This document shows positions 2,706 through 51,878 of a DNA stretch of 51,878 bases, piece by piece (position 1 is the first letter of the stretch; each line of letters starts with the position of its first letter). A model generated the notes under the pieces. The model saw only the letters and a list, made by a program, of their open reading frames with translations. It did no database searches and was not told where the DNA came from. The translations under genes were made by a program, and so were the position numbers. Origin of the DNA: an uncultured bacterium (GTDB lineage: Bacteria; Patescibacteriota; Minisyncoccia; Phycocordibacterales; CAIZLB01); NCBI GenBank assembly GCA_903848795.1, contig CAINHC010000037.1, positions 1 through 51,878 of the forward strand. Reading direction: 5' to 3'.

Positions 2706-3416
2706 TTATATGTATTTACAGATAAAGAATAGGGTGCGAACTAGTGGGTTTGGGACCGGTAGTTTATTGTCTCTCATTTCCTTAAGATATAAGTCATTAT
2801 TTAAGTCACCAAGAGAGTCTCCTCGTTTCATAAAAATTGTTGAAGAAACTGGTATATATTTAAACTTAGCTTCTTGTTTATTTGCTATTCTAACGAATAA
2901 ATCTAGGTCTCCACATATTCTAAATTTATTATATTGCAAGCCTCCAACTAAATTATAAATTCTCTTGGAAAAAATAATGCTTGGTTGTATGGCGGGGATG
3001 CAGCCATGTTTTAGAAAGAATTTTCCAAATCTTCTACCTTTTCCAAATTCAGTATGTTGATCTTTTATAAAAAAGTATTTACCATCAGAATAAATAAAAT
3101 CAATATTTGATTTGACAGCTTCAGAGTACATCAACTCAAATCCATCTTTAATTATTCTGTCATCAGAATTTACCCATGTAAACAAATCTCCTGACGCCGC
3201 CATGAAGCCTTGGTGAATTGCTCCGTACATTCCAGTTTTTTCTGTTTGTTTTAATAATCTCACATGAGGGTATCTTGATATTATATTTATCGATTCATCA
3301 TTTGACCCTCCATCAACAATAATGTGTTCAAAGGGTATATCTAGTAACATAACCGACTTGATGTTGTCCTCTAGGTATTTGCCATTATTTAAATTAGGTG
3401 TGATTATGGATAACAT
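2706..3416 (-). CDS. Glycosyltransferase family 2
   Basis: SIITPNLN, IVDGGSND, WVNSDD. Confidence 0.88.
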   Translation of the reverse strand: MLSIITPNLNNGKYLEDNIKSVMLLDIPFEHIIVDGGSNDESINIISRYPHVRLLKQTEKTGMYGAIHQGFMAASGDLFTWVNSDDRIIKDGFELMYSEAVKSNIDFIYSDGKYFFIKDQHTEFGKGRRFGKFFLKHGCIPAIQPSIIFSKRIYNLVGGLQYNKFRICGDLDLFVRIANKQEAKFKYIPVSSTIFMKRGDSLGDLNNDLYLKEMRDNKLPVPNPLVRTLFFICKYI

Positions 3417-3417
3417 T

Positions 3418-4371
3418 TTAATAGTGAATAAGTTTAATTAGATATCGCTTAACTTTTTTAATGTTTTTGGTTATATAATTTTCTTGAATAGATATCGGTC
3501 TTCTTCCAGTTTGCTTAATAAATTCATCTTCTAGTTCTTTTATATGCCAAATTTGTAATGGCTCGAAGAATAATATACCATGCTCATCAAATAATTTTTT
3601 GATTTCTTGTAGGTGCCAGGTGGGCTTTAAATCTTCTGCTGTTTTTAGTGAATCTACACCCTCTATCCACTCTGGTTTTACTTTAGATAGTTTTGAGATA
3701 TCACAATCTAAAGAGTGTGAATATGCAGAATTTATCGATATGTAATCGTTTGGTTTTTTAACTAATTCAGTGCAACGATATAATATTTGCTTGAATTGAG
3801 TTTTATTCCAAGATAGCCATTGTAGGTGAATAATTGGTAGGCTATCTATCTTTTTGCAATTATTTAGGAAAGCTGGTGGTACCCTGGCTACGTGGTCGTT
3901 TATTATAATTTCCTCTCCATAATTTGTTGCTCCGTCATCTAGCCAAGCGGCTCTTTGGTAGTTTCTGTACCAAACGCCAGTGTCATTGTAATACTCTGTA
4001 GATTTCCAAAGCTGTATCCATGGAAATCTGAAACTATCTCCAACTTTGAAATCAGTTTCATTTAAAAACTTTTCAAATAGTTTTGGTGGTATGTACTCAT
4101 CTGCATCTAGAGATATTATTAAGTTGTTATCACCAAATTGTCTGGCTGTCTTCAGTAGATCCCACCTAACTTGATTGGAGTGCCCATCTCTTGGGTTGTC
4201 GATAATGATAACCTTTGGAAATTTTTTATATATCTCCATTGAACCATCGGTTGACATCTGGTCTGCGATGATTATTGTGTCACAATATTTAGATATTACG
4301 TTTAAAGTAACGGGCAGTACATCAGCCTCATTCTTGACCGGCATTAGACATATTACTTTTGGTCTTTTCAT
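3418..4371 (-). CDS. Glycosyltransferase family 2
   Basis: MPVKNE, DQMSTDGS, LDADE motifs. Confidence 0.82.
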   Translation of the reverse strand: MKRPKVICLMPVKNEADVLPVTLNVISKYCDTIIIADQMSTDGSMEIYKKFPKVIIIDNPRDGHSNQVRWDLLKTARQFGDNNLIISLDADEYIPPKLFEKFLNETDFKVGDSFRFPWIQLWKSTEYYNDTGVWYRNYQRAAWLDDGATNYGEEIIINDHVARVPPAFLNNCKKIDSLPIIHLQWLSWNKTQFKQILYRCTELVKKPNDYISINSAYSHSLDCDISKLSKVKPEWIEGVDSLKTAEDLKPTWHLQEIKKLFDEHGILFFEPLQIWHIKELEDEFIKQTGRRPISIQENYITKNIKKVKRYLIKLIHY

Positions 4372-43727: not shown

Positions 43728-45788
43728 ATGCTTATCTCACAAAATTGGTTAAAGAAATATTTTACAGACGGCGCCGAGCCGCGGACTTTACCCGATGCGA
43801 AGACAATAGAGAACACCTTCACAATGGGTATTTTTGAAGTTGAAGGAGTTGAGAAGGTTATTACTGGAACAGAGAATGTAGCCGATACTGTTTTTGATAT
43901 TAAGGTTCTACCTGACCGAGCCCATTATTGTTATTCACATAGATATGTTGCGCAAGAGTTGGGTGCGCTATTAAATATTCCAGCCACTCTTCCTGTTTAT
44001 GATACAGCAAAAATAGCATCACAAATTGATGGCAGTCTTGTGGTTAATGTAAATGTTGTGGAAGAAAAAGTTGGTGAAGAGAAAAATAGATTTGTTTGTC
44101 CAAGGTATATGGCAAGACGAGTCGAAGGGGTAGAGGCTACAGCTTCACCTTTATGGCTGAAAACCGCACTAGAGGCATTGGGTCAAAGATCAATTAATGT
44201 CCTAGTTGATTTAACTAACTATATAATGCTAGAAACTGGCCAGCCACTTCACGCTTTTGATGCTGATAAGGTGGAGGGGGATATTAATGTTCGATATGCA
44301 AAAGATGGGGAAATAATAGTACTCTTGGATGGAACTGAAGTTGCACTTTCTTCCGATATTCTAGTTATTGCCGATTCGAAAGATGCTCTAGCGATTGCAG
44401 GAGTTAAGGGTGGAAAAAAAGCTGAAGTTACGGCAGAGACCAAGAAAATTATTATCGAATCCGCCAACTTTGATAGTGTTTCAGTTAGAAAAACTTCACA
44501 AAAGGTTGGAATAAAAAATGAATCGTCGAAGAGATACGAGAATAAGGTGACTCCTGAGAGAACGCAACTTGCGATGAATGCGATTTCTGAATTTATCGCA
44601 ACAATATTTCCTTCTGCAAAATTTGGAAATGTTACTGATGTTTATCTTGGTAAGCCGGAGGCTAAGCAATTTGATGTGTCAGTTAAATTTATAAATGATG
44701 TAATCGGGTTGAAGGAGAGAATTGGCGCTGATAAAATAATTGATATACTTCTAAGATGCGATATTAAAGCGGAGGCTACCTCGGATGACAATCTAACAAT
44801 TCACGTTCCAGAGTATAGATTGGATCTTGAAATTGGATATGACATAGTTGATGAAGTTGGACGTATTCTAAACTACATGAATCTTGTGCCAGTCGAATTG
44901 CCAAAAGAAGATAACCGCCCAGTACTTAAGAACTTTTACTACATGAACGCATTGCGTAAGGTTTTTCAAGGTGCTGGATTTTCTGAGGTTTACACTCATT
45001 CATTAAAAGAGAATGGCGATGTTGAAATTTTAAATCCCCTAAACATTGAAAGAGGATTCATGAGAAATACTATTGGTGAGGGATTAATAAAAAATCTAGA
45101 ACATAATCTTCGATATGTAGATTTGCTTGGTCTTGATGCTGTTAAGATATATGAGGTGGGTACAATCTTTGGTGGTAAAGTTGAGAGACCATCCTTGGCA
45201 TTTGGAATTGCAAATGCAAAGAAAGTTAAGGGATATAATTTTGAAGCAGAAGCGGAGAAGATTTTCAATCAAATTTTGAGTAGTGAGTACTTTGCTGGCA
45301 CGGCGAGTGGAACATCACTTGATTTGAATTTACTAAAATCATCTGCAAAATTTACTGAGTCAAATATTGGAACAGGTGGAGTAAACGTTGTTGGTAATGT
45401 TTGTGAAATAGAACTTCAAAAAATAATTGATGTACTACCTGATCCAAAAAGTGACATCTATTTTGAAACTCCAAAATTAATTAAATATAAAAAGTATTCT
45501 CAGTATCCATTCATGGTTAGAGATATCTCAGTGTTCGTTCCTGGGGAGGCGACGGAAGTGGAAGCTGTTAAGTCTATAATTACTAAACACGGAACGAATT
45601 TGTTAAATAGCGTAAGATTGTTTGATGTTTATACAAAAAATAAAGAAGGCGAGCCTGTTAAAACTTCTTATGCGCTAAGGCTTGTATTCCAATCGAATGA
45701 GAGAACTCTTACAGATGATGAAGTGATTCAAATAATGCAAAATATAACTGCTGAGATGAATGGTATGGAGGGATGGGAGGTGAGGTAG
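43728..45788 (+). CDS. pheT: Phenylalanine-tRNA ligase beta subunit (lacking the B2 OB-fold insert)
   Basis: SQNWL, PDRAH, VDLTNYIMLETGQPLHAFD, IIESANF, YRLDL..DEVGR, FDX-ACB domain RDISV..LFDVY..RTLTD. Confidence 0.95.
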   Translation: MLISQNWLKKYFTDGAEPRTLPDAKTIENTFTMGIFEVEGVEKVITGTENVADTVFDIKVLPDRAHYCYSHRYVAQELGALLNIPATLPVYDTAKIASQIDGSLVVNVNVVEEKVGEEKNRFVCPRYMARRVEGVEATASPLWLKTALEALGQRSINVLVDLTNYIMLETGQPLHAFDADKVEGDINVRYAKDGEIIVLLDGTEVALSSDILVIADSKDALAIAGVKGGKKAEVTAETKKIIIESANFDSVSVRKTSQKVGIKNESSKRYENKVTPERTQLAMNAISEFIATIFPSAKFGNVTDVYLGKPEAKQFDVSVKFINDVIGLKERIGADKIIDILLRCDIKAEATSDDNLTIHVPEYRLDLEIGYDIVDEVGRILNYMNLVPVELPKEDNRPVLKNFYYMNALRKVFQGAGFSEVYTHSLKENGDVEILNPLNIERGFMRNTIGEGLIKNLEHNLRYVDLLGLDAVKIYEVGTIFGGKVERPSLAFGIANAKKVKGYNFEAEAEKIFNQILSSEYFAGTASGTSLDLNLLKSSAKFTESNIGTGGVNVVGNVCEIELQKIIDVLPDPKSDIYFETPKLIKYKKYSQYPFMVRDISVFVPGEATEVEAVKSIITKHGTNLLNSVRLFDVYTKNKEGEPVKTSYALRLVFQSNERTLTDDEVIQIMQNITAEMNGMEGWEVR

Positions 45789-45931
45789 TAGTTTTACTCT
45801 TTAAGTATTAATTTTGGGGTTTTTAGGATTAATCATGAAAATAGGGTTTTGCAATCCTTGTATTTGTACAAAAATAAGGATTGGCAAATCATATATTTGG
45901 GTATTATTTCTATATTTGATATAATCAATAT

Positions 45932-48424
45932 ATGAAATTTAATAATGAAAGCATCCCTGCTGATGCTAATCAAAATCCAAATGAAGACTTAAACCTCCAT
46001 GCCCTTTCTCGTGAGAGAAGTGAACTTAGAAAAGCCTTGCAGGGTCTTGGGGTTAATCCAGTAAAATCAGAACATATTAAGACTGGAAAGAATGAAGAAT
46101 CTTTAATATATACAGAAGGTATTGAAGAAGTTAATCAAAAAATTGGAGATTTTAGTATAGAAAAAGCTGGAGGAATGTCAAAAGCAAAAGAACTTGTGAG
46201 ACAAGACAAAGAAGTTGCTCCTCAGAAAGGTTTTGTAAATGAAATTGCAATAGTGAAAGAAATGGGTCCTATCTATGAAGAAATTGCTGATTCATTTGAG
46301 CAGGTCGAACAATCTAATTTGGTTATTAATAAAAATATTCAACAGATTTCTTTAGAAGAAGACCCATATAAAAGAATGGTCCTAGAAAGAGTTGTAAAAA
46401 AGTTTATAGTTAAAAGAGATGCTTATCAGGAAATATATCAATTAGCTGTTACAAGAGATCCAAAAATTGCCAGAGCGCACACGCTTATAGAATACAAGAA
46501 AGGGCTACATTCAGAAGGTCACATTGCAATGACTCCAAGTGTTGCTAAATACGTTGAAGAAATAGAAAAGAAAATGCGTACCGGAGATCCAATGTTTCTC
46601 CATGGTCCAACTGGTACTGGTAAAACATCTATTGCAAGGCTTGCTGCGGAAGAATTAACCGGAAAAACTGCTGAGATGGTTTACTGTAATCAACAAACAC
46701 GCGAGTCAAATATCTGGGGTAAGACAGGTGTTAAAGGAGACGGCAAAGGAGGGTCTGAGACTTTTGATATATTGGGTCCACTTGCAAGGGCTATAAAAGA
46801 AGGTAAACCAATTATTTTTGATGAATTTAACTCACTTGAAGAGGATCAAATGAGGATCATTAAAGGAGTTTTTGGTTATAAACCAGGAGATGAAGTGCCA
46901 ATCACGGGAAATGGTAAGATAAAAATGGCACAAGGTTTTCAAATAATCTGTACAGCCAATCTTAAATCTGAAAAACATACAGATAGAAGAGATCTACCAG
47001 ATGAAATTAAAAGAGAGTTTGAGCAAAACAATATAGAGGTTAATTATAATCCAAAACATGAAAGTTTTGATATTATGCTTGCCCGACTTATGAATCAAGA
47101 TGGGTCCATTGACCTTTCTTGGCACGATATGAACGTAACTCTCCCAAAATTTTCTGAGGCAATTGAGAGTGTTCAGCAAGCCTATTCTGGAAATTTAAGT
47201 GATGACGAGGCAAAATCAATTGGTGTGATGAATGCTTCAAATGCAAAATCAGAGCTTAAGGGTTTTGTTATGACACAAGGCTCTGTTGAATCAATATTAG
47301 ATCAGTGGAAAATTGAGACAAAAATTGGTAAAGGTAGTAAAACTTTTGCAGAATTTATTGATGAAAGATTAAAAACAGCGTTGACTTTTAAAACATACAG
47401 TCAAGAAGACAGAGTCTTGTCAGCAAAAATATTTGCACTCAAGGGATTTTTAAAAACTGTAACACCAGAAGAAATGTCTCTACCAAAAGATATTTTTAAT
47501 GGAGTTAAAATAAAAGCCGAAAGAGGTGGAGAAGATGAAATTGAAGAATTAAAAGAAAAATCTTCAAAGGTTGTACATATTACTTTGTCTGAAATTGCAG
47601 AACTAGATCCTTTTGCTGTCCGTCCAAATAAAATTGATCCACTAGAAGATTTTTCTGCGGGACATGAGTCAGACGGGGATGACTTTTCAAAGTCATTAGA
47701 AAAAAGATTGGCCAAGATTAGAAAAGGGAAGGAAAAACATGGTAATTCAATATCCACAGAGTATACTCGCACAAATCCAGAAACCAACGCCGTAGAACAC
47801 CAAGAATCCATAACTATAAACATAGAGGAAAAACTTCAAGAATTTATAACACTATATCAAGAAACAAACATAGATACACCGCCAGACTTTGAAGATCAAA
47901 TTAGAGATATTTGGTTAAAGAATAATACTGAAATACAGGAAGCTATTGAGGAAAAAGGTTTTGATGATATCATTATAGCTCCTGCCAATATTCCACTCCC
48001 TGCACTTGCAGAAAAAATGAAGGTGGGCAATGACTACTGGTTAGGAGATGGCTTCAAAAATGGCGGAGGCTTTGCAGGAGCAAATAGTGTGGGCACAGAT
48101 AAGCCACGTATAATTCTTATTCACAAGACTCAAAATTTAGGAGAAAGACCAGAACTTGCTTCAACACGTGGAGTCAAAGCAAAAGACATAAACATAGAAG
48201 AATCACTATCATTGGATGATTACATAATATTTCAAAAACAATATTTTAAAGAAAATGGAAAACACCTTGATGAAAATGGGTGGACATGGACACCTCGTAC
48301 TAAATCTGGCGACCGTTTTGTCTACTCCGGCTGGGGCTCCGATGGCGAGCTGCATGTCGTCGCCAGTGGTGCCGGCGGTTCCAGCTCCCACTTGGGCGTT
48401 CGTCCCTCCCGCTATTTTTATTAA
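45932..48424 (+). CDS. MoxR/AAA_5-type ATPase with C-terminal putative DGR-diversified (CLec-like) domain
   Basis: Walker A GPTGTGKT, Walker B IIFDE, CTAN; C-terminus WTW...LGVRPSRYFY carrying a variable-region cassette. Confidence 0.85.
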   Translation: MKFNNESIPADANQNPNEDLNLHALSRERSELRKALQGLGVNPVKSEHIKTGKNEESLIYTEGIEEVNQKIGDFSIEKAGGMSKAKELVRQDKEVAPQKGFVNEIAIVKEMGPIYEEIADSFEQVEQSNLVINKNIQQISLEEDPYKRMVLERVVKKFIVKRDAYQEIYQLAVTRDPKIARAHTLIEYKKGLHSEGHIAMTPSVAKYVEEIEKKMRTGDPMFLHGPTGTGKTSIARLAAEELTGKTAEMVYCNQQTRESNIWGKTGVKGDGKGGSETFDILGPLARAIKEGKPIIFDEFNSLEEDQMRIIKGVFGYKPGDEVPITGNGKIKMAQGFQIICTANLKSEKHTDRRDLPDEIKREFEQNNIEVNYNPKHESFDIMLARLMNQDGSIDLSWHDMNVTLPKFSEAIESVQQAYSGNLSDDEAKSIGVMNASNAKSELKGFVMTQGSVESILDQWKIETKIGKGSKTFAEFIDERLKTALTFKTYSQEDRVLSAKIFALKGFLKTVTPEEMSLPKDIFNGVKIKAERGGEDEIEELKEKSSKVVHITLSEIAELDPFAVRPNKIDPLEDFSAGHESDGDDFSKSLEKRLAKIRKGKEKHGNSISTEYTRTNPETNAVEHQESITINIEEKLQEFITLYQETNIDTPPDFEDQIRDIWLKNNTEIQEAIEEKGFDDIIIAPANIPLPALAEKMKVGNDYWLGDGFKNGGGFAGANSVGTDKPRIILIHKTQNLGERPELASTRGVKAKDINIEESLSLDDYIIFQKQYFKENGKHLDENGWTWTPRTKSGDRFVYSGWGSDGELHVVASGAGGSSSHLGVRPSRYFY
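47793..47915 (+). repeat. 123-bp direct repeat, copy 1 (start of the shared C-terminal domain)
   Basis: 6 mismatches versus 51054-51176. Confidence 0.9.
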
Positions 48425-48475
48425 TAATAGGTAGCTTGTAGCTTGAGGATTGTATCTTTTTTTGAATTTTGTATT
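48305..48475 (+). repeat. Putative DGR variable region VR1 plus conserved 3' flank
   Basis: 171-bp direct repeat with 51602-51772; 17 coding differences all at codon positions 1/2. Confidence 0.88.
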
Positions 48476-48491
48476 AAATTAACTTTGTATT

Positions 48492-50603
48492 ATGAATGAA
48501 AAACCAATAATTATAGAGACAGCAAAAGATGGAAGGGATAATGAAGAGAAAAAAATTGATGGTATTCTGCTTGAGCCTGAAAATCCACCTACAACTGCTC
48601 CTAAAAAAGAACAAGGAGATAGAGAATTTCAAGAAAAACAACATGAGCAAGCTGTGAATTTTGTTGAGGGCCACAGAAATGTTTTGGAACATTATGCTCG
48701 GGGTGCTATTTCTATAGCTCCATCGCCAAAAGGTTTAAATACATTTGCCTTTGATCTTGAAAAAAATACAATTTACATAAACTCAATGTTCTACAAAGAA
48801 CTTGGTTTGTCAGATGAGCGCACACTTTTTGCCTCAATGCATGAAATAGAACACTTCCTAGAAAAGAAACAAATTCTAGCAGAAAAAGGTGGCTCTATAA
48901 AATTTAAAAAATATTTAGATAGAATTAAAAAATCTAGAGCCTTTGCTTTAACAGATAATTGTGTAGCGGATATACATGTGAACAAGACAGTTATATCAAA
49001 AACAAACGAGAGTTTGGCTGGGGTTGAAAAGGGTATGTATACGGAAGTGCTATTTAAGGAAAGAGATTTTACAGAAGCTCCAAAGCATATTCAATTTGCG
49101 CAAGCCTTGCTTAGAGAATCGAGGGTATCCGACGAAGAATGTGTTGTCGCAGAAGATGTGCGAGAGAAAATGGAAAAAATCAAAAGTATGAAAGGTAAGA
49201 GTGGGTTGTCACTTATTGATGTTATGACATCACCGTCGACAACCATGTCTGATAGATTGGCTCTGCAGGACAAGTTCATAATGCCAATAATTGAGGAATT
49301 AAAAGAAAAAGATATTGAAGAGGAGAAAGAAAAACGTAAACAGAAAAAAGAACAGCAGGAAAAACAAAAGCAAAAATCTGAGAAGGAGAAAGGCGAAGAG
49401 GGTGAGGATATGAAGAATGATGATGAAGGTGGTGATGATAATAAAGATGACCCAACTAAAGGAGATAAAACCAAACCAGAAAAAGGTGGCAAAAATGAAT
49501 CTAAGGGGGAAGGGGATGAAGATCTAAATGAAAACTTTGACCCAAATGAATTTTGGAAAGAATCCTATGATAAGGCAGATAAAACAACACCAAGAGCTGT
49601 ATCACAAGAGGATATAGACAAAGCGATTGAAGAATATGAAAAAGCAACTAAAGCTAAGGTAAAAAGTGAAAAAGAAATACAAGAAGAACTTGATAAGGAA
49701 TACGCAGAAAATATTGGAGTGAAAAAAGAGGATTTGCAACAATATAGAAAATTGGTAAAAGAGTTAGAAAAAGTTGTTAATCCAGAGACAAATAGAAATG
49801 TTATAGAGGAACTTAGGGATCTAATTGCAAAAATTATATCCAAAAGAAAAAAGAAAAAAACAGATCCAAAATATCCAGTGGAAGAAGGTGATGAATTAGT
49901 GGAACCTGGGGAATTGGTTGCTGAGGTTAAGAAAGGTAATTTTACACCAAAAGTTTGGGAGACACATGAGCTCAAAGAAAAAGCTGATAATAAATTTGGA
50001 GAAATAGAGATAACATTTGTTGGCGACAGGTCTACCTCTATGAAGGAAGGTAGAAAACTTACTGAACAGCAAAAATCTATCGTTATGGCAATGGAGGCTT
50101 TAAAAGAGTTTTCGGATATATGTAAAGAAGAGAGAACAAACTTAACTAAACCTCTTGAAATCAAATCTGAAATTTATTCTTTTCAGTCTTCAGAAAAAGA
50201 TGATAAGACACCAATAAAAGCAATGTCTCCTGAACTTAGTGAGGCAGACAGAATAAAAACAGCCTCAAAACTTGCGTCGTGTACTGGGTCAACGATGGAC
50301 TTTGTACCACTTGAAACTATTATGTCTAATTTGGACGAGACTTCCAAGAAAAAAATTCTTGCTGGTGAATTAAAAAAAATTGTAATTATATTTACCGATG
50401 GAGAAAGCGATGACTCAGATAGGGTAATAAAAGTTCTAAAAACACTTAGGGAATCTGGAGTTGTCGCGGTTGGTGTGGGGGTAACGGAATCTGGTAAACA
50501 AACTTTGCTTACTTATGCACCAGACGCAAAACTAGCGGAAACAGCGGATAAATTACCAATTATATTGGGTGAGCTTTTGAAGGAACATCTTTCTGTTGTA
50601 TAG
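48492..50603 (+). CDS. VWA-domain protein with N-terminal HExxH metallopeptidase-like domain and charged linker
   Basis: MHEIEH; K/E/D/G-rich linker; MIDAS DRSTS ... FTDGES, VGVG; directly follows the MoxR-type ATPase. Confidence 0.82.
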   Translation: MNEKPIIIETAKDGRDNEEKKIDGILLEPENPPTTAPKKEQGDREFQEKQHEQAVNFVEGHRNVLEHYARGAISIAPSPKGLNTFAFDLEKNTIYINSMFYKELGLSDERTLFASMHEIEHFLEKKQILAEKGGSIKFKKYLDRIKKSRAFALTDNCVADIHVNKTVISKTNESLAGVEKGMYTEVLFKERDFTEAPKHIQFAQALLRESRVSDEECVVAEDVREKMEKIKSMKGKSGLSLIDVMTSPSTTMSDRLALQDKFIMPIIEELKEKDIEEEKEKRKQKKEQQEKQKQKSEKEKGEEGEDMKNDDEGGDDNKDDPTKGDKTKPEKGGKNESKGEGDEDLNENFDPNEFWKESYDKADKTTPRAVSQEDIDKAIEEYEKATKAKVKSEKEIQEELDKEYAENIGVKKEDLQQYRKLVKELEKVVNPETNRNVIEELRDLIAKIISKRKKKKTDPKYPVEEGDELVEPGELVAEVKKGNFTPKVWETHELKEKADNKFGEIEITFVGDRSTSMKEGRKLTEQQKSIVMAMEALKEFSDICKEERTNLTKPLEIKSEIYSFQSSEKDDKTPIKAMSPELSEADRIKTASKLASCTGSTMDFVPLETIMSNLDETSKKKILAGELKKIVIIFTDGESDDSDRVIKVLKTLRESGVVAVGVGVTESGKQTLLTYAPDAKLAETADKLPIILGELLKEHLSVV

Positions 50604-50683
50604 CAATGGTATGTTAGATTAGTAAACAAGACAGTAGAGTATTACTTTATTATAAATCTTAAAGATGATAATATAAAAACATC

Positions 50684-51721
50684 ATGGAATCACCAATCAT
50701 AGAGATGGCTAAGCCAAAATCACCACAAAAGTCTGAAAACAGATCTGAATTAGAAACAGACCAACAAAAAGCAAAAGAAGCTTACAAAGCTTCTTTTGAC
50801 AAGCTGGATCTTTTTATTGGACGAGACATAGCAAGATATAAAGAACAACTGGCAAGCGGTGACTTTGAAGACAAAGAAGGAGATGAGGAGGGTTCTGGAG
50901 AAAAAAGAAAGGAAGCATTTAGAGTAAAGCTTTTACGTAATATGGATAAGGTAGAGAAAATGCATAAAGTTATAGAAAGTGGAGAAGATATACTCTTAAT
51001 ACAGCCTGAAATCTCTGTAGATTATGTTTATGCTAACCCCACCATGGGCGCCCTAGAACACCAGGAATCCATAACTATAAACATAGAAGAAAAACTTCAA
51101 GAATTTATAACACTATATCAAGAAACAAACATAGATATACCACCAGACTTTGAAGATCAAATCAGAGAGATTTGGTCAAGAAACACCACAGAAATACAAC
51201 AGTCAATAGAGGAGAATGGATTTGATGATATTCTGCTTGTTCCAGCCAACCTTAACCTTGTAGATCTTGCAGAGAAGATGAAGATGGAAAATGGAAATTT
51301 CACTGGTGCCAACTTTGATAACGGAGGAGGCTTTGCTGGAGCAAAGAGTATAGGTATAGACAAACCACGTATTATTCTATATCACAAGAAAACGTTGCCA
51401 GAAATACAAGAGAAGACAGGAATAGACGTTCATTTAGACATCAAGGCGGGTGAAGCTGAAAAGCTATTCAAACAAAACCCTGATCAATACTTAAGTACTC
51501 TTGAAGACTTTATTGTTTTTGAAAGGAAAAATCTTAAAGATTCCAACAAACACTTTTCCAAGTATGCAGAAAACAGTGGAGTTTGGCTATCTGGAACCAA
51601 GTCTGGCGACCGTTGTGTCTACTCCGGCTGGGACTCCGATGGCGGGCTGAGTGTCAACGCCGATGATGCCGACGATTCCGACTTCAGCTTGGGCGTTCGT
51701 CCCTCCCGCTATTTTTATTAA
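50684..51721 (+). CDS. Putative DGR target protein sharing the C-terminal domain of the AAA ATPase
   Basis: EHQESITINIEEKLQEF..., GGGFAGA, DKPRIIL, and the LGVRPSRYFY end shared with 45932..48424. Confidence 0.82.
   Translation: MESPIIEMAKPKSPQKSENRSELETDQQKAKEAYKASFDKLDLFIGRDIARYKEQLASGDFEDKEGDEEGSGEKRKEAFRVKLLRNMDKVEKMHKVIESGEDILLIQPEISVDYVYANPTMGALEHQESITINIEEKLQEFITLYQETNIDIPPDFEDQIREIWSRNTTEIQQSIEENGFDDILLVPANLNLVDLAEKMKMENGNFTGANFDNGGGFAGAKSIGIDKPRIILYHKKTLPEIQEKTGIDVHLDIKAGEAEKLFKQNPDQYLSTLEDFIVFERKNLKDSNKHFSKYAENSGVWLSGTKSGDRCVYSGWDSDGGLSVNADDADDSDFSLGVRPSRYFY
51054..51176 (+). repeat. 123-bp direct repeat, copy 2
   Basis: 6 mismatches versus 47793-47915. Confidence 0.9.
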
Positions 51722-51772
51722 TAATAGGTAGCTTGTAGCTTGGGGATTGTATCTTTTTTTGAATTTTGTATT
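51602..51772 (+). repeat. Putative DGR variable region VR2 plus conserved 3' flank
   Basis: 171-bp direct repeat with 48305-48475. Confidence 0.88.
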
Positions 51773-51878
51773 CTGCATTTTAAATTTTTTCTTTGTATTG
51801 GATTTTGGTGAGTATGGTGGAATTGTTGACGTTGAAGCAACAGATGATTCTAACCTGCCAAAAATTGATTTTAAATTA

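Follow-up and report, generated by a model that had tools for sequence, protein, structure and literature searches.

The window analyzed here is a 51,878-nucleotide (nt) stretch of DNA from an uncultured bacterium of the phylum Patescibacteriota (GenBank assembly GCA_903848795.1, contig CAINHC010000037.1). It is contig C37 of a 1,020,251-bp genome in 52 contigs, the GyrB protein of which is closest to those of Patescibacteria/Paceibacterota metagenome-assembled genomes (MAGs). Three genes at the right end of the window, all on the plus strand, belong in all likelihood to a diversity-generating retroelement (DGR) of a kind typical of Patescibacteria; it has two target genes, a single template repeat (TR) on another contig, C32, and a cassette that most likely lies beyond the right edge of the window. 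Target gene 1 (45932..48424) encodes an 830-amino acid (aa) protein in which a MoxR-type AAA+ ATPase is fused to a variable domain that makes up the last 224 aa or so and ends in the first variable region (VR1). The partner gene (48492..50603) encodes a 703-aa protein with an N-terminal HExxH region, a K/E/G-rich linker and a C-terminal von Willebrand factor A (vWA) domain. Target gene 2 (50684..51721) encodes a 345-aa protein that consists of a hydrophilic N-terminal part and a variable domain ending in the second variable region (VR2), and matches no Pfam family. The two target proteins have nothing but this variable domain in common, at 57% identity.

The last 40 codons of the two target genes (48305-48424 and 51602-51721) align without gaps and differ at 17 nt located in 12 codons; five of these differences fall on the first codon position, 12 on the second and none on the third. 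The first-pass annotation, made from the letters of this DNA, had likewise given 17 nt in 12 codons with no difference at a third position, and all 12 codon pairs on its list are recovered; the GC-richness that it noted at the gene ends is equally apparent (GC content of 0.65 in VR1 and 0.62 in VR2 compared to 0.35 in the window). The near-identity extends past the stop codons (98.3% over 59 nt, 48417-48475 versus 51714-51772), which that annotation does not mention, although the two genes match at only about 50-60% in the coding DNA that directly precedes the VRs. Farther upstream, a 120-nt patch (47788-47907 versus 51049-51168), present in the genome at these two places only, is 95% identical between the targets, third codon positions included, with a third-position identity of 0.2-0.5 around it; this patch looks like the result of gene conversion between the paralogous targets.

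A search of the whole genome with VR1 yields a third copy, on C32 (5575..5464, minus strand). This TR spans 112 nt, contains 23 adenines and is in register with the homologous 112 nt of VR1 (48305..48416, plus strand) and VR2 (51602..51713, plus strand). VR1 differs from the TR by 15 mismatches, 14 of which are at TR adenines (14 of the 23 adenine sites versus 1 of the 89 other sites; Fisher p 4.7e-11), and VR2 differs by 12 mismatches, nine of them at adenines (9/23 versus 3/89; p 2.2e-5). Because the genome contains this third copy and the VR mismatches fall on its adenines, the likeness of VR1 and VR2 is not due to chance. All 23 TR adenines occupy codon positions 1 or 2, with seven AAY codons, and the 15 codons that are able to vary could yield about 3.6e13 peptides. 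The TR itself is non-coding: the open frame across it is only 39 aa long, and a TGA directly follows the last shared codon. At the 3' end, a GC-rich segment of 26 nt (48391..48416 in VR1, plus strand) is identical in VR1, VR2 and the TR and resembles an initiation of mutagenic homing (IMH) site; the columns GG....CG.C..TCCCGC are invariant among 25 VR ends from 19 loci. Beyond this segment, VR1 and VR2 have a common flank that is absent from the TR. The prediction that a single template serves both genes is borne out by these mismatches, and 22 of the 27 template codons that had been written out in advance agree with the TR; the genome-wide check proposed along with it, for a non-coding, adenine-bearing copy next to a DGR-type reverse transcriptase (RT) and Avd, leads to C32. 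No conserved RNA structure is predicted downstream of the TR (0 pairs, nine sequences), and an Rfam scan gives no match on C32 and only a tRNA-Thr in the window.

Downstream of the TR and on the same strand, C32 encodes a 328-aa RT with an intact frame (Pfam RVT_1, 72.3 bits with a cut-off of 29.6). The best solved relative of this protein is 8ub7_A (E 2.5e-30), the residues of which equal those of Brt from the Bordetella phage BPP-1; the best group II RT is found at E 9.3e-19. The RT aligns with BPP-1 Brt over 320 aa at 25% identity (E 5e-40) and contains the motifs LGNITSQ and YNDD; the (I/L)GxxxSQ motif is a hallmark of DGR RTs. The avd gene separates the TR from the RT gene and is oriented opposite to them, so that the order is TR-(avd)-RT. 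The Avd protein is recognized by the Pfam bAvd model (56.7 bits, cut-off 40) and has no solved relative by sequence search. The RTs encoded next to this target family form one clade with 100/100 support, apart from the RTs of the two other DGRs of the same genome, and RTs of the same clade flank A-biased TR/VR pairs in other loci.

The two other DGRs are located on contigs C22 and C2. The former is complete (L029; VR 2201-2332, TR 2647-2778, RT 3181-4191), with all 18 TR/VR mismatches at TR adenines, a 644-aa target without a Pfam family, and an inverted avd in the order TR-(avd)-RT. In the latter (L028; VR 798-914, TR 1241-1357, RT 1840-2796), 15 of 16 mismatches fall on TR adenines, and a single TGA disrupts the RT frame and leaves a 268-aa open reading frame, so this copy may be broken. 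Contigs C48 and C49 additionally encode two near-identical RTs (about 431 aa) that group separately from those of the DGRs and are probably group II intron-like.

The ATPase part of target 1 is assigned to Pfam AAA_5 (aa 221-346, E 3.8e-13), with intact Walker motifs (Walker A GPTGTGKT at aa 225) and an IIFDEF motif, and its nearest solved chains are those of NorQ, a MoxR-class protein. The vWA domain of the partner protein (Pfam VWA, E 6.1e-8) includes the metal ion-dependent adhesion site (MIDAS) motif DRSTS at aa 512. The HEIEH motif of this protein (aa 117) is kept in all eight close homologs aligned, and the homolog in a related genome, G031, has HEGGH elsewhere in the region; no Pfam model matches this region at E up to 0.01. 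Judging from these motifs, the N-terminal region might be a metallopeptidase-like domain. Neither a signal peptide nor a hydrophobic membrane segment is detectable in target 1, the partner or target 2. The variable domain, for which the first-pass annotation predicted the C-type lectin (CLec) fold usual in DGR targets, has no Pfam family, no sequence relative in PDB and no profile similarity to Mtd (probability 1.8%). Its family is small, with 130 representatives recovered from 1.84 billion proteins at an E-value of up to 0.001; the domain was found in seven of 400 other genomes sampled from the phylum, in two of 16 genomes from other families of the same order, and in none of 24 genomes of its own family. 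In the ESM Atlas, the neighbors of the segment corresponding to aa 225-345 are DUF5701 (TM 0.65) and DUF4256 (TM 0.63), both below the level at which a fold would be named, and otherwise only hypothetical clusters from the candidate phyla radiation (CPR), with Lcl_C as a weak feature lead (0.78-0.80); DUF5701 and DUF4256 are not mentioned in the literature searched. No relative of the target family was found among viral contigs. Across 54 family members, the columns at TR adenine codons are more variable than the others (2.95 versus 1.41 bits, p 2.5e-6).

The same module is present in other Patescibacteria. Among 26 MAG loci that encode the variable domain, many of them on short contigs broken at the repeat, an RT is found in nine, always within a few kb of the targets, the ATPase part in 13 and the vWA protein in 10. 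Besides G031, the MoxR-type ATPase/vWA pairing recurs in five related loci, those in which both parts are present. In four loci, the full order is AAA-VD1, TR, (avd), RT, vWA, VD2 (VD, variable domain), which puts the core ahead of the vWA gene and directly after target 1, whereas the genome of the window has it behind the second target instead. A repeat scan covered 15 of the 26 loci: eight gave no TR/VR pair (two with an RT at the contig edge and six without an RT), and in the seven that have such pairs, 153 of 168 mismatches are at TR adenines. The ortholog of target 1 in a related MAG (L111, 84% DNA identity) exhibits a third state of the VR, which differs from the C32 TR at 17 sites, 13 of them adenine sites. 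In G031, a single contig carries the genes for the vWA protein, an AbiEii pair and an AAA_5 protein that has two variable domains, followed by the TR, avd in inverted orientation and the RT gene, and the in-repeat TR/VR mismatches are at adenines in 14 of 14 and 15 of 15 cases. The AbiEii pair, which is toxin-antitoxin-like, lies between the vWA gene and the ATPase target (L027, G031:C7, 8051-9143).

Both target genes are followed by a tandem heptamer, GTAGCTTGTAGCTTG (48431..48445 and 51728..51742, plus strand), that starts 6 nt after the respective stop codon; these two 15-mers are the only exact copies in the whole genome. The 26 loci provided 27 gene ends with a stop codon and downstream sequence, after seven rows had been dropped (two running off the contig and five short of the C-terminus). 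The heptamer follows 19 of these ends at up to two mismatches and 22 at up to three, with none after four, and is always located 0-15 nt past the stop codon on the strand of the gene; in random 83-nt segments, its frequency is 0.4%. The invariant letters, TA..TTGT...TTG, reveal a direct repeat (TAnnTTG twice, consensus GTAGCTTGTAGCTTG). The heptamer was never found downstream of a TR, and neither G031 nor the two other DGRs of the genome have it; no terminator is listed at this position. In BPP-1, a hairpin after the VR is required for efficient homing, according to Guo 2011, and a GC-rich hairpin is not supported here: the DNA folds after the VRs have z-scores of -0.62 and -0.63, and an AGCT/AGCT pairing lacks covariation, its score being reached by 232 of 500 shuffles. 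The heptamer is therefore proposed as a candidate marker of recipient sites for this RT clade, and its presence after the target stops may be a new detail.

Several observations weigh against a currently diversifying, two-target DGR that continues past the edge of the window. Three sites differ from the TR at positions other than adenine (T25G in both VRs, T14G and C83T in VR2); Avd scores 66.3 against the NCBIfam DivGenRetAVD model, under the cut-off of 80; the hairpin is unsupported, as described above; the marker role proposed for the heptamer and the putative sensor function, discussed below, are suggested by context; and the ends of C37 show no overlap of at least 12 nt with any other contig, such that the adjacency of C32 and the window is inferred. 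No VR variation is seen in the contigs of four lake-water runs, in which the VR1 and VR2 unitigs are letter-identical and the only G-to-A rows at the VRs result from the TR contig aligning onto VR2; contigs hide rare variants, and all four runs come from one study. Similarly, 12 contigs on record encode the exact target-2 protein, which stands by itself in its 90% cluster, and six encode the exact target-1 protein; the 90% protein clusters include no VR variants, and one copy is truncated within the VR, at aa 800. Given the invariant VRs and the identical proteins on record, the element may be rarely active or silent. The first rival explanation is that of a fossil or dormant DGR, with VRs that were written by past retrohoming and are no longer diversified in this population, for which the accumulation of three non-adenine differences, one of them common to both VRs, could be another sign. 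However, the RT frame is intact with its YNDD motif; the same holds for avd, the two target genes and the segment for 3' recognition; and the 17 differences between VR1 and VR2 imply at least two separate writing events. Allowing also for the limits of contig data, dormancy is rather unlikely, but it is the most probable of the rival explanations.

The position of the cassette bears on the next alternative, in which it acts in trans from a distant chromosomal place. This possibility agrees with C37 and C32 being separate contigs with non-overlapping ends, and remote targets are known for some DGRs, albeit only outside the CPR set in Wu et al. (2018, PMC5758913). The genomic context points to the opposite. 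In two close relatives (L030 and L032, GyrB 96% and 94% identical), a single contig carries both pheT and gyrB, with about 660 bp from the 3' end of the former to the latter downstream, and this pheT segment corresponds to window positions 45000-45788 at 86-88% DNA identity; C32 in turn carries gyrB, the protein product of which is 96% identical to that of the relative whose pheT matches that of the window at 86%. The pheT-gyrB spacing puts the ends of C37 and C32 back to back, and the sole linear arrangement that fits is pheS-pheT-[AAA-VR1, vWA, VR2, gap, TR, (avd), RT]-gyrB. The adjacency of pheT and gyrB in the relatives thus makes this the most likely layout of the island, with the TR, avd and RT directly past the right edge of the window, a position deduced from synteny rather than assembled. 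In addition, a 14-nt direct repeat, ATAGGGTTTTGCAA, is found at both outer borders: the left copy (45841..45854, plus strand) lies 53 nt after the pheT stop codon, and the right copy (C32 4099-4112, minus strand) overlaps the RT stop codon. The 13-mer core of this repeat occurs at two sites only in the 1.02-Mb genome, and the score of 29 for the local alignment of the two outer flanks is reached by none of 300 shuffles. Finally, the RT is close to the targets in the nine related loci mentioned above and, likewise, in G031. The first-pass annotation had left two alternatives, a cassette just past the right edge or remote targets; synteny favors the former, and the latter now appears improbable.

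The island would span at least 7.7 kb and take the place of a small unrelated gene of the relatives. In L030 (2300-2800), the closest relative, the pheT-gyrB spacer contains a GC-richer small gene on the opposite strand where the DGR island sits here; the site is therefore a replacement rather than a clean empty site. The ATAGGGTTTTGCAA repeat is absent from the spacer of the relatives and could mark the border of an inserted island; it might have arisen by target-site duplication or represent an attachment site. Within the assembled part of the island, no integrase is seen. Immediately after VR2, a contig of run X4 departs from the window sequence at 51787, and runs X1-X3 provide no cover over the last 130 nt (51747-51878), which may reflect differences between samples or poor assembly in this part.

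It is barely conceivable that the two genes diverged as paralogs by diversifying selection or gene conversion without any retroelement, or that C32 is a binning contaminant: the gene conversion-like patch (47788-47907 and 51049-51168) and the short length of C32 (5.7 kb) would fit these scenarios, but selection cannot account for differences that fall on adenines in a third copy which is non-coding and adjoins an RT gene and avd, the GyrB and pheT matches given above speak against a contaminant, and the depth of C32 tracks that of the VR unitigs in the four runs, with ratios of 0.56-0.89.

Compared to characterized systems, the element belongs to a known class, considering that CPR DGRs with AAA-ATPase targets and the TR-(avd)-RT order are already in print. 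DGRs of the CPR have been covered by Paul et al. 2017 (as cited in Dore et al. 2024, PMC10907252), and, according to Dore et al., most CPR RTs form a separate clade. The study of Wu et al. (2018, PMC5758913) assigns 90% of the CPR set to architecture B3, TR-(avd)-RT, and includes AAA-ATPase targets (Midasin-like, 'UVR4', category g1); it also gives a GC-rich hairpin or cruciform after the VR for 34% of DGRs. The element described here shares with the CPR DGRs the TR-(avd)-RT order with avd on the opposite strand, an AAA ATPase target with the VR at its C-terminal end, a Patescibacteria host, and the occurrence of several DGRs in one small genome. A limited literature search, which does not demonstrate absence, found no description of the vWA partner, the free second target or the heptamer for CPR elements.

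With BPP-1 (mtd-avd-TR-brt), the common features are adenine-specific differences between the TR and the VRs, a Brt-related RT, an avd gene and a GC-rich 3' segment common to the TR and VR. Unlike the phage-borne BPP-1 element, the present one is chromosomal, without relatives among viral contigs, has two targets and an inverted avd, lacks the GC-rich hairpin after the VR, and diversifies a target family without profile similarity to Mtd. Links of DGRs to MoxR-vWA systems have been published for other phyla (Kaur et al. 2020, PMC7159879, and Dore et al. 2024, PMC10907252). In the VMAP ternary conflict systems of cyanobacteria and gammaproteobacteria, as presented there, a MoxR-class AAA+ ATPase and a vWA protein are encoded together with a DGR-diversified ligand-binding domain, and the targets are predicted to be cytoplasmic, as they are here. 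In those systems, however, it is the vWA protein that carries the variable domain, whereas here the domain is fused to the ATPase and additionally present as a free-standing protein. The only effector candidate here is the HExxH region of the vWA protein, in another difference from VMAP systems; no VMAP component and no TIR, caspase or trypsin-like effector is seen, and Pfam detects no effector domain on the three proteins, although no search aimed at VMAP was made.

By analogy with the Bordetella phage element, the TR would be transcribed, the RT together with Avd would copy it into cDNA while misreading adenines, and this cDNA would replace VR1 or VR2. The cDNA could be guided by the shared GC-rich 3' end and by the proposed tandem heptamer, which lies 3' of the target stop codons and is missing from the TR. 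The part subject to diversification would be the C-terminal, putative ligand-binding domain of a cytoplasmic MoxR-type AAA+ ATPase and of its free paralog, around the HExxH-vWA partner. A plausible if tentative function for such a module is that of a variable sensor inside the cell, which would be coupled to a MoxR-vWA machine and perhaps directed against phages. A cell-surface adhesin is less likely: the module encodes cytoplasmic-looking proteins only, which favors intracellular sensing over the host attachment usually proposed for these symbionts. More doubtful is the combined proposal that this RT clade marks its recipients with the tandem heptamer instead of a GC-rich cruciform and diversifies one domain on both a MoxR ATPase and a free paralog, to produce a cytoplasmic hypervariable sensor, possibly an adaptive anti-phage one.

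Codon-position logic by itself sufficed to call the DGR targets correctly from raw sequence, and the locus adds a well-resolved example to the known class of CPR DGRs that diversify AAA ATPases. The complete module, with the ATPase fused to the variable domain, the HExxH-vWA protein, the free variable domain, the TR, the inverted avd and the RT, recurs in Patescibacteria with an RT clade of its own. The heptamer, for its part, is a candidate for the signal that tells recipient from donor in AT-rich DGRs and, if this is true, would be relevant to retargeting.

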